This document shows positions 52,922 through 53,148 of a stretch of 61,231 bases of DNA, one piece after another. The DNA is from Eledone cirrhosa (taxonomy: Eukaryota), in the NCBI GenBank assembly GCA_964016885.1, contig CAXHJY010000369.1, positions 1-61,231 of the forward strand. Reading direction: 5' to 3'. The stretch's first letter is position 1. Every line of letters starts with the position of its first letter. Made by a program: the position numbers and the translations under genes. Below the pieces are notes generated by a model, which had not been told where the DNA came from, searched no databases, and saw only the letters and a program-made list of their open reading frames with translations.

Positions 52922-53148
52922 ATAATATATAAGATCAAAAGATGGTTAAATGAGTTCCATGTATTTTATTATGCGCATATGTTGATTTAAAACTGCACTA
53001 TCCACAAGTGTTTTTTAACCTTCATATCATGTCCTCCTATTTTATCTGATGAAAACACAAATGTTATTGGAGGATGATATTTGTTTTTGAAATGCACATA
53101 ATAAAATACATGGAACTCATTTAACCATCTTTTGATCTTATATATTAT
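52922..53148 (+). mobile_element. Penelope-like terminus with 57-bp inverted repeat (52922-52978 / 53092-53148)
   Basis: One mismatch between the arms; encloses the hammerhead core, followed by AATAAA. Confidence 0.75.
53038..53108 (+). ncRNA. Minimal type-I hammerhead ribozyme (HHR-1)
   Basis: Stem I UAUUUUAU/AUAAAAUA, CUGAUGA 53046-53052, ~15-bp stem II, GAAA 53089-53092, short stem III, AUA cleavage triplet ending at 53100. Confidence 0.8.

Follow-up and report, generated by a model that had tools for sequence, protein, structure and literature searches.

The window (the whole 61,231-nt stretch that was analysed) contains a short insertion in which a hammerhead is preceded by an inverted copy of the 3' part of its repeat unit, and the inverted copy ends exactly on a palindrome that also forms part of the ribozyme. 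The locus raises the question of what sets the breakpoint between the two arms: the stem III palindrome, as an earlier sequence-only reading had proposed, or another boundary of the repeat. The evidence comes from the anatomy of the insertion, from other copies of its family (family A) in public reads, and from the positions at which direct and inverted copies are joined.

Layout of the insertion and its hammerhead

The mirror-ended insertion is 313 bp long and lies inside a TA microsatellite. Its features are as follows.

51785-52838, no strand: left (TA)n-rich array, the target
52836-52921, minus strand: extension ("tail") of about 85 nt, lying downstream of the inverted arm and confined to that arm
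52922-52978, minus strand: copy, inverted and 5'-truncated, of the 3' part of the unit, from stem III to the short end; 56/57 identical to 53092-53148
52971-52978, no strand: ATGCGCAT, the stem III palindrome in its family-majority form; truncation point of the inverted arm in the window copy
52976-52981, plus strand: CATATG, family-wide fixed start of the direct copy, first base A52977
52977-53148, plus strand: direct copy, comprising the fixed start, a 61-nt leader, the hammerhead, a 40-nt 3' part and the short end in the TA array
53038-53108, plus strand: type I hammerhead, recognised by its stems and core and by conservation across copies; cut predicted after A53100
53038-53045/53101-53108, plus strand: hammerhead stem I, 8 bp
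53046-53052, plus strand: hammerhead core CTGATGA
53053-53088, plus strand: hammerhead stem II, 15 pairs, one C.U mismatch, 4-nt loop
53089-53092, plus strand: hammerhead GAAA
53092-53099, plus strand: hammerhead stem III, ATGCACAT in the window copy
53096, plus strand: private A, a CpG-type change where the family has G; breaks the stem III palindrome
53100, plus strand: H17 (A53100), NUH triplet AUA
53100-53105, plus strand: AATAAA, equal to H17 plus the stem I 3' strand
53139-53215, no strand: right (TA)n array, the target

The repeat unit runs from the fixed start (52977) through the hammerhead to the short end (53148) and then into the extension of about 85 nt. The unit can thus finish at a short end or at a long one, and the window insertion uses one on each arm; the short end lies 48 nt past the cut site in family A and 50 nt past it in a neighbouring family, family B. 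The 57-bp inverted copy ending exactly at ATGCGCAT was confirmed: 52922-52978 mirrors 53092-53148 with a sole mismatch at 52974/53096, and the 113 nt between the arms consist of leader, core and stem II. Position 52922, which had been taken as the start of the element, was rejected as its left end, since 52843-52921 is covered by family reads or contigs in 4/4 runs examined and the element continues leftwards for about 85 bp more. At its far end the extension passes into the TA array somewhere in 52836-52842, and because both flanks are TA, a target-site duplication is indistinguishable from the repeat. A MITE or DNA transposon with terminal inverted repeats was also rejected, since arm length differs between copies and the extension is on one arm. 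Where the extension reaches its far end (52839-52848, plus strand), an AG/GTGAGT resembling a splice donor lies antisense to the inverted copy; it may be due to chance.

The complete type I core that had been reported at 53038-53108 was borne out: CUGANGA, GAAA and NUH, together with stems I-III in type I order, are all present. A relaxed scan (core, GAAA, UH and a stem I of at least 6 bp) found two motifs in the window, this hammerhead and the left copy of family B, against a mean of 0.035 and a maximum of 1 in 200 local shuffles of 18656-55044, and the hammerhead is therefore not attributable to chance. No hammerhead model of Rfam matched, either at the gathering score or at E<=10. The AATAAA had been described as following the ribozyme; it sits instead inside the hammerhead, and an independent polyadenylation signal was rejected since these letters are those of the cut site (H17) and stem I. 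The ATG-started frames inside the hammerhead close, by eye, within a few codons, and the 41-aa open frame of the extension matched no longer protein, which is a weak test. No reverse transcriptase (RT) or GIY-YIG domain was recognised among the ORFs of the window, of which the Pfam scan took in 5 of 73, whole or in part.

The family in public reads

Part of 52843-53140 occurs in 13 of the 16 public runs listed, from 8 studies. Four runs, from 4 studies and 3 organisms, were compared with the window at 82% likeness: X1 (organism A, 4008 contigs), which may be the window's own sample; X14 (organism A, 4845 raw reduced-representation reads), whose counts are weighted to few loci; X5 (organism B, 33 contigs); and X8 (organism E, 28 contigs). 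The reads revealed a high-copy family present in the three organisms, with depths that, when summed, are not copy numbers. There was depth in 30/30 bins in all four runs, 52843-52921 included, and one X5 contig joins the hammerhead, a variant tail and then the start of the extension in one piece. At the 52917 register, 52 X1 contigs, 109 X14 reads and 2 X5 contigs show a family copy giving way to a TA run, and the insertion preference for TA arrays that had been proposed from this locus thus extends to other copies.

The copies also placed the window's stem III in context. The base at 53096 is G in 957373 of 971561 depth units in X1, in 1114 of 1150 reads in X14, and in all of X5 and X8, so that stem III is palindromic in all four runs and ATGCGCAT also lies inside the ribozyme in about 98% of the family signal. 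Since the palindromic stem III is the normal family sequence, ATGCGCAT at the arm end needs no special mechanism, and the window's ATGCACAT is a private, probably disabling change.

Variation among the copies, of which 40 of 67 rows were listed, is consistent with conservation of the ribozyme, in line with what had been expected of other copies. None of the 15 listed variant sites within 53038-53108 falls in the 12 core positions (p about 0.04), and 8 of 9 listed stem variants keep pairing on the plus-strand fold (p about 0.03), or 9 of 9 if 53053 A>G and 53088 T>C, which were both seen but unphased, occur together. No phased two-sided compensatory change was seen among these listed variants. 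The window copy closes helix II with A-U, and G and C occur there as variants. By eye, a stem II variant of organism B (53052/53056) has five changes on one strand with all 12 pairs kept, and the loose ends at 53133 and 52937 mark a subfamily with a different 3' tail resembling that of family B.

Folding calculations pointed to a dimeric form. The monomer fold of 53038-53108 is weak by itself (z -1.7), and the 8-mer stem III self-duplex was computed at -10.5 kcal/mol with the majority G as compared with -3.7 kcal/mol with the window A. With the majority base, the lowest-energy two-copy fold contains stems I, II and III of the dimer, at -34.9 kcal/mol as compared with -34.3 kcal/mol when the hammerhead dimer is imposed as drawn; with the window base, the two copies misfold (-31.1 versus -24.1 kcal/mol). 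The computed probability of stem I was 0.0 in a read-through transcript and 0.28 when the RNA begins at 52977. The ribozyme of the family is thus predicted to cleave in dimeric form, paired through the stem III palindrome, and the window copy is probably inactive, because its palindrome is mutated and the inverted arm would lock stem I in read-through RNA.

An artefact of the assembly or the library, or a motif arising by chance in AT-rich sequence, would have 50.4% of the window as TA array and the blank Rfam result on its side. It is extremely unlikely, given that the family and its fixed boundary recur in 4 runs from 4 studies and 3 organisms, that the contigs of the listed joints have depths of 40-154, that a shuffle yields 0.035 motifs, and that the two arms differ by one base.

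The fixed start and the joining of the arms

Breakpoints were read from 15 of 40 joints and 23 of 164 loose-end rows, those listed; for most joints the basis is a single contig whose shorter side counts about 25 letters, matched at 82% likeness, and copies that share the window's own junction match the reference and hence are invisible as joints. On the side of the direct copy, 12 of the 15 listed joints fell on 52977-52981, seven of them exactly on 52977, and the remaining ones fell on 52987 (one) and 53087 (two). This pile-up has a p of about 2e-9 against a uniform spread, even with all 25 unlisted joints placed elsewhere. On the side of the inverted arm, the 13 joints on 52977-52987 lie at 10 different places between 52865 and 52941, and in one further contig the arm passes through stem II before joining 52977. 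The other direct-copy starts listed are 52987, 52997, 53014, 53087 (twice), 53110 and 53111. Pieces from X5 and X8 (organisms B and E) also open at 52976/52977, preceded by different letters. It is the start of the direct copy, common to the family, that forms the fixed breakpoint, and insertions join a direct copy from 52977 to an inverted copy of variable length. The inverted terminus with a conserved hammerhead, of the kind seen in Penelope-like elements (PLEs) and claimed for this locus, accordingly recurs beyond the truncated inverted copy in the window, in the 13 listed joints on 52977-52987.

These positions argue against stem III as the turning point. The sequence-only reading held that the inverted terminus arises as a rule at the stem III palindrome, by priming or template switching there, and pointed out that breakpoints random relative to stem III would speak against it; the listed joints, with starts piled at one place and arm ends scattered, are largely random in this sense. 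The arm in the window does end exactly on the last base of the palindrome, and copies with the same junction would go uncounted in the joint table. However, every listed joint has its arm end elsewhere, one arm crosses both stems III and II, and folding back at stem III would produce a tail-to-tail junction lacking the 113 nt that separate the arms. None of the 24 contig pieces listed crosses the window junction, a weak result given that 4158 further pieces are unlisted. The position of the window junction is explained by a short overlap with the fixed start: 2 nt (AT), or 3 nt (CAT) when the upstream C of a longer form is counted, with these bases coming from the end of stem III. Summed over 13 listed joints, the overlaps amount to 18, with 10.9 expected (p 0.06), and they reach at least 3 nt at 4 of 13 (p 0.04), both weak excesses. 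We therefore regard priming at stem III as very unlikely to be the rule, and the mirror joint inside the ribozyme palindrome as likely to be a coincidence of one copy.

The sequence before the fixed start bears on a further reading. Upstream of 52976, one conserved version with 30 letters visible is shared by 263 X14 reads and an X5 contig, and because it is shared, a longer form exists. If the family were a non-autonomous, retrozyme-like repeat of at least about 260 nt, whose transcript is cleaved by the hammerhead, closed into a circle and inserted by PLE proteins, these letters would be the end of the previous unit. Its size range and type I hammerhead would fit non-LTR retrozymes (PMC7229834; bioRxiv 10.64898/2026.07.22.740005), and no ORF is linked to it. 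Against this reading, no tandem repeat was found at 52836-53148, none of the 15 of 40 joints listed leads from the 3' end of the unit back to its start, and the inverted arms and one-sided tail are marks of PLEs. Moreover, no joint or loose end among those listed, the latter being 23 of 164 rows, lies at the cut site 53100/53101 or at its mirror, and ends defined by the cut site were rejected on these grounds. A retrozyme-like origin thus appears improbable.

Two contigs bear on the centre of symmetry. X5 record 14 and X8 record 18, with 12 and 14 loose letters, respectively, carry the mirror image of the start, as decoded by hand from mixed consensus lines of two contigs, and in both the sequence breaks off 15 nt short of the mirror centre. 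The contigs presumably derive from a 31-mer graph, in which a perfect palindrome would dead-end as it does in these X5 and X8 contigs. In X1, 22 contigs are loose before 52976, with a median of 12 loose letters. We infer that perfect head-to-head palindromes centred on the fixed start exist in organisms B and E; because these contigs mirror the start and stop 15 nt from the centre, the relevant palindrome centre would be the ATAT at 52977-52980 and not stem III.

Such palindromes are what the main rival explanation predicts, namely that a single cDNA uses the self-complementary ATAT/CATATG of the fixed start to fold back and serve as its own template, with variable arms arising from later deletion or an early stop. 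Besides the palindromes inferred for organisms B and E, and probably for A, there is an X8 contig in which a 12-nt mirror of the start precedes 52994, and self-priming has been proposed for junction palindromes of this kind in PMC3846280. However, decay of a palindrome should trim both sides, and in 12 of the 15 joints listed the direct side is preserved to within 5 nt; nor does fold-back from one cDNA explain by itself why the extension is on one arm only. We consider this explanation rather unlikely.

The observations are best explained, with a probability of about 0.6, by two short cDNAs of a high-copy hammerhead repeat that were joined head to head at a TA microsatellite, leaving a dead PLE stub. 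The anatomy of the unit, its fixed start, the variable inverted arm, the two 3' ends, the TA targets and the conserved ribozyme are features of the copies themselves; the steps that would connect them are proposed by analogy with known elements. Position 52977 would be the RNA 5' end, although we take it to fit only part of the initiator consensus. Both target strands would be nicked and primed at two internal sites, and the cDNAs joined by their 3' ends: a PLE endonuclease would nick both (TA)n strands, and RT would begin at the short end and at the end of the extension. One cDNA would pass the uncut ribozyme to the RNA 5' end, the second would stop early or also finish, and the two would pair at their 3' ends over 0-4 matching bases. 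If both cDNAs were complete, the product would be a perfect palindrome centred on the ATAT of the start. One short cDNA would give the form in the window, where the breakpoint would lie at stem III because its AT/CAT end overlaps the fixed start and happened to supply the match. Membership in the PLEs is not proven, because an RT-GIY-YIG gene is not linked and the tail is longer than described.

A related family, neighbouring repeats and known systems

The window is repeat-rich animal DNA, whose repeats seem to resemble those of an octopod cephalopod. TA-rich arrays make up 50.4% of the window, with scattered retroelement fragments besides, and other elements occupy the same TA arrays. The main ones are the following.

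54046-54228, minus strand: inverted arm of family B; its hammerhead looks intact, with ATATATAT as stem III, and its short end lies in a TA array
54768-55042, plus strand: family B direct arm with a 92-nt one-sided extension; G at H17
53216-53614, 51376-51772, 47590-47988, 46770-47168 (reverse), 6626-6980, 943-1263 and 7025-7082: copies of an element of about 400 bp

The direct and left arms of family B are 99.5% identical over 183 bp, and its right-hand hammerhead, with G at H17, is predicted to be non-cleavable. The stretch between its arms (54229-54767) holds about 400 bp of GA-rich sequence with poly(A) and about 130 bp of further upstream sequence, and represents either captured host DNA or a later insertion. 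Families A and B have a near-identical stem I, an 8-nt palindromic stem III in each, and a one-sided extension in each. The alignment of the two hammerheads, shared core included, beats 1000 of 1000 shuffles, and the extension of family B is homologous to 52836-52921 of family A: the alignment was matched by 8 of 1000 shuffles and contains three collinear shared words of 7-10 nt (TATACTCCA, AGTGCTT and TATTGTACTA). The 3' tails and the upstream parts gave no above-chance alignment (738 and 772 of 1000 shuffles). By their sequences, the two families are related. The earlier description of two families lying near each other in TA arrays thus holds as regards the preference for TA; their designation as unrelated was rejected, since stem I, stem III length and the hammerhead and extension alignments link them.

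The element of about 400 bp occurs in copies 96-98% identical, always within TA arrays, and one such array is flanked by two of them (46770-47168 and 47590-47988) that point in opposite directions. Its minus-strand frame has a weak C2H2 zinc-finger match (Pfam E 8.5e-05, below the cut-off), like the 3' end of a LINE. A SINE-like repeat of about 196 bp forms clusters of full and truncated copies with ATA/TA-rich joints (22290-23640, 34370-34560 and 36985-37120) and adjoins family A fragments in X8 contigs. At 23043-23150, a 48-bp inverted repeat (96%) is centred on a short TA run and has no second copy in the window. Decayed LINE-like fragments at 32480-35640 and 50423-50798 are, we assume from their motifs, probably of the RTE type, and a remnant resembling a mariner-like transposase was seen by eye at about 33400-33870. 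A 153-aa frame at 28204-28662 (minus strand) matched nothing in Pfam; by eye, we take it to resemble the C-terminal restriction-like endonuclease region of non-LTR retrotransposons.

Beyond these runs, a metagenome scan with a strict two-stem pattern gave 0 matches, and a loose pattern gave at least 119 loci, 14 of which passed a weak stem filter. None of the loci listed combines a stem I of at least 4 bp with a stable stem II, and one is a 22-nt match to the family; lacking good stems, these loci were dropped as chance. We found no published description of family A in a search outside of which the repeat databases lay, and the family may already be catalogued there.

A more specific, tentative proposal is that the family may multiply mainly as "strong-stop" products, with the PLE RT starting from the two internal sites closest to the 5' end of its own transcript, which lie about 85-90 nt apart, more than double the known tail, and running off a capped start at 52977. 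Although we hold this to be the less probable case, the transcription start and both priming sites could then be read to the base from every insertion, and insertions would be sealed by annealing of two cDNA ends. Two related families in one animal lineage would offer a direct genomic read-out of how the PLE inverted terminus forms, and a dimer-only hammerhead would be under selection even though its cut leaves the ends unmarked. In any case, an abundant family with a base-exact start, variable arms and two 3' ends provides natural data for separating two-cDNA joining from fold-back. How PLEs make inverted ends is posed as an open question in section 15 of PMC8557442, and the later insertion steps are left unvalidated in the relevant part of PMC11167929.

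The architecture itself has already been published, and the locus is an unexceptional example of a type already known. Animal non-LTR retrozymes (PMC7229834; bioRxiv 10.64898/2026.07.22.740005) are likewise short, non-coding and AT-rich, with a type I hammerhead and a proposed PLE origin; they are described as head-to-tail tandems with circular RNA, whereas the window locus is an inverted pair in which no tandem was seen. PLE insertions are closer: a direct copy and an inverted 5'-truncated copy lie head to head, with an extension or tail at one end (PMC8557442, Fig. 2 legend; PMC3846280), palindromes occur at the 5' end of the pseudo-LTR (pLTR) and at the inverted junction (PMC3846280), and targets are biased to microsatellites without discernible duplication (PMC8557442; PMC3846280). 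In contrast to these, the window element has no ORF between its arms, its whole insertion measures 313 bp, and no autonomous element is linked to it; the extensions of both families are about 85-92 nt long, as compared with the PLE tail of 30-40 nt in the descriptions cited.

The hammerheads in the pLTRs of metazoan PLEs (Cervera and de la Pena 2014, PMC4209133; PMC6765202) share the type I topology and canonical core, a small palindromic helix III predicted to act as a dimer, a larger-than-usual helix II and variation that preserves pairing. The 15 pairs of helix II and 8 bp of helix I found here exceed the minimal Schistosoma forms described (helix II 7-8 bp, helix I 4-5 bp), and the window copy has A-U where G10.1-C11.1 typically closes helix II. 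A promoter and transcription start inside the pLTR have also been reported (PMC2377424; PMC6765202), as is proposed here for 52977.

The nearest experimental parallel is PAc, the Anolis Poseidon element (Frangieh et al. 2024, PMC11167929). Its ORF starts inside the hammerhead and its tail is the 30-40-nt interval, whereas the ATG frames of the hammerhead described here close soon, and the in vitro work reported in that paper, in the sections cited, did not cover head-to-head joining. In the other respects compared, PAc and family A are alike: there are two fixed 3' ends downstream of an uncut hammerhead, corresponding in PAc to two internal RT starts that bound the tail; cleavage is dispensable in PAc, and no ends, among those listed for family A, lie at the cut site; and the targets are AT-rich, with both strands used, being nicked and extended in PAc.
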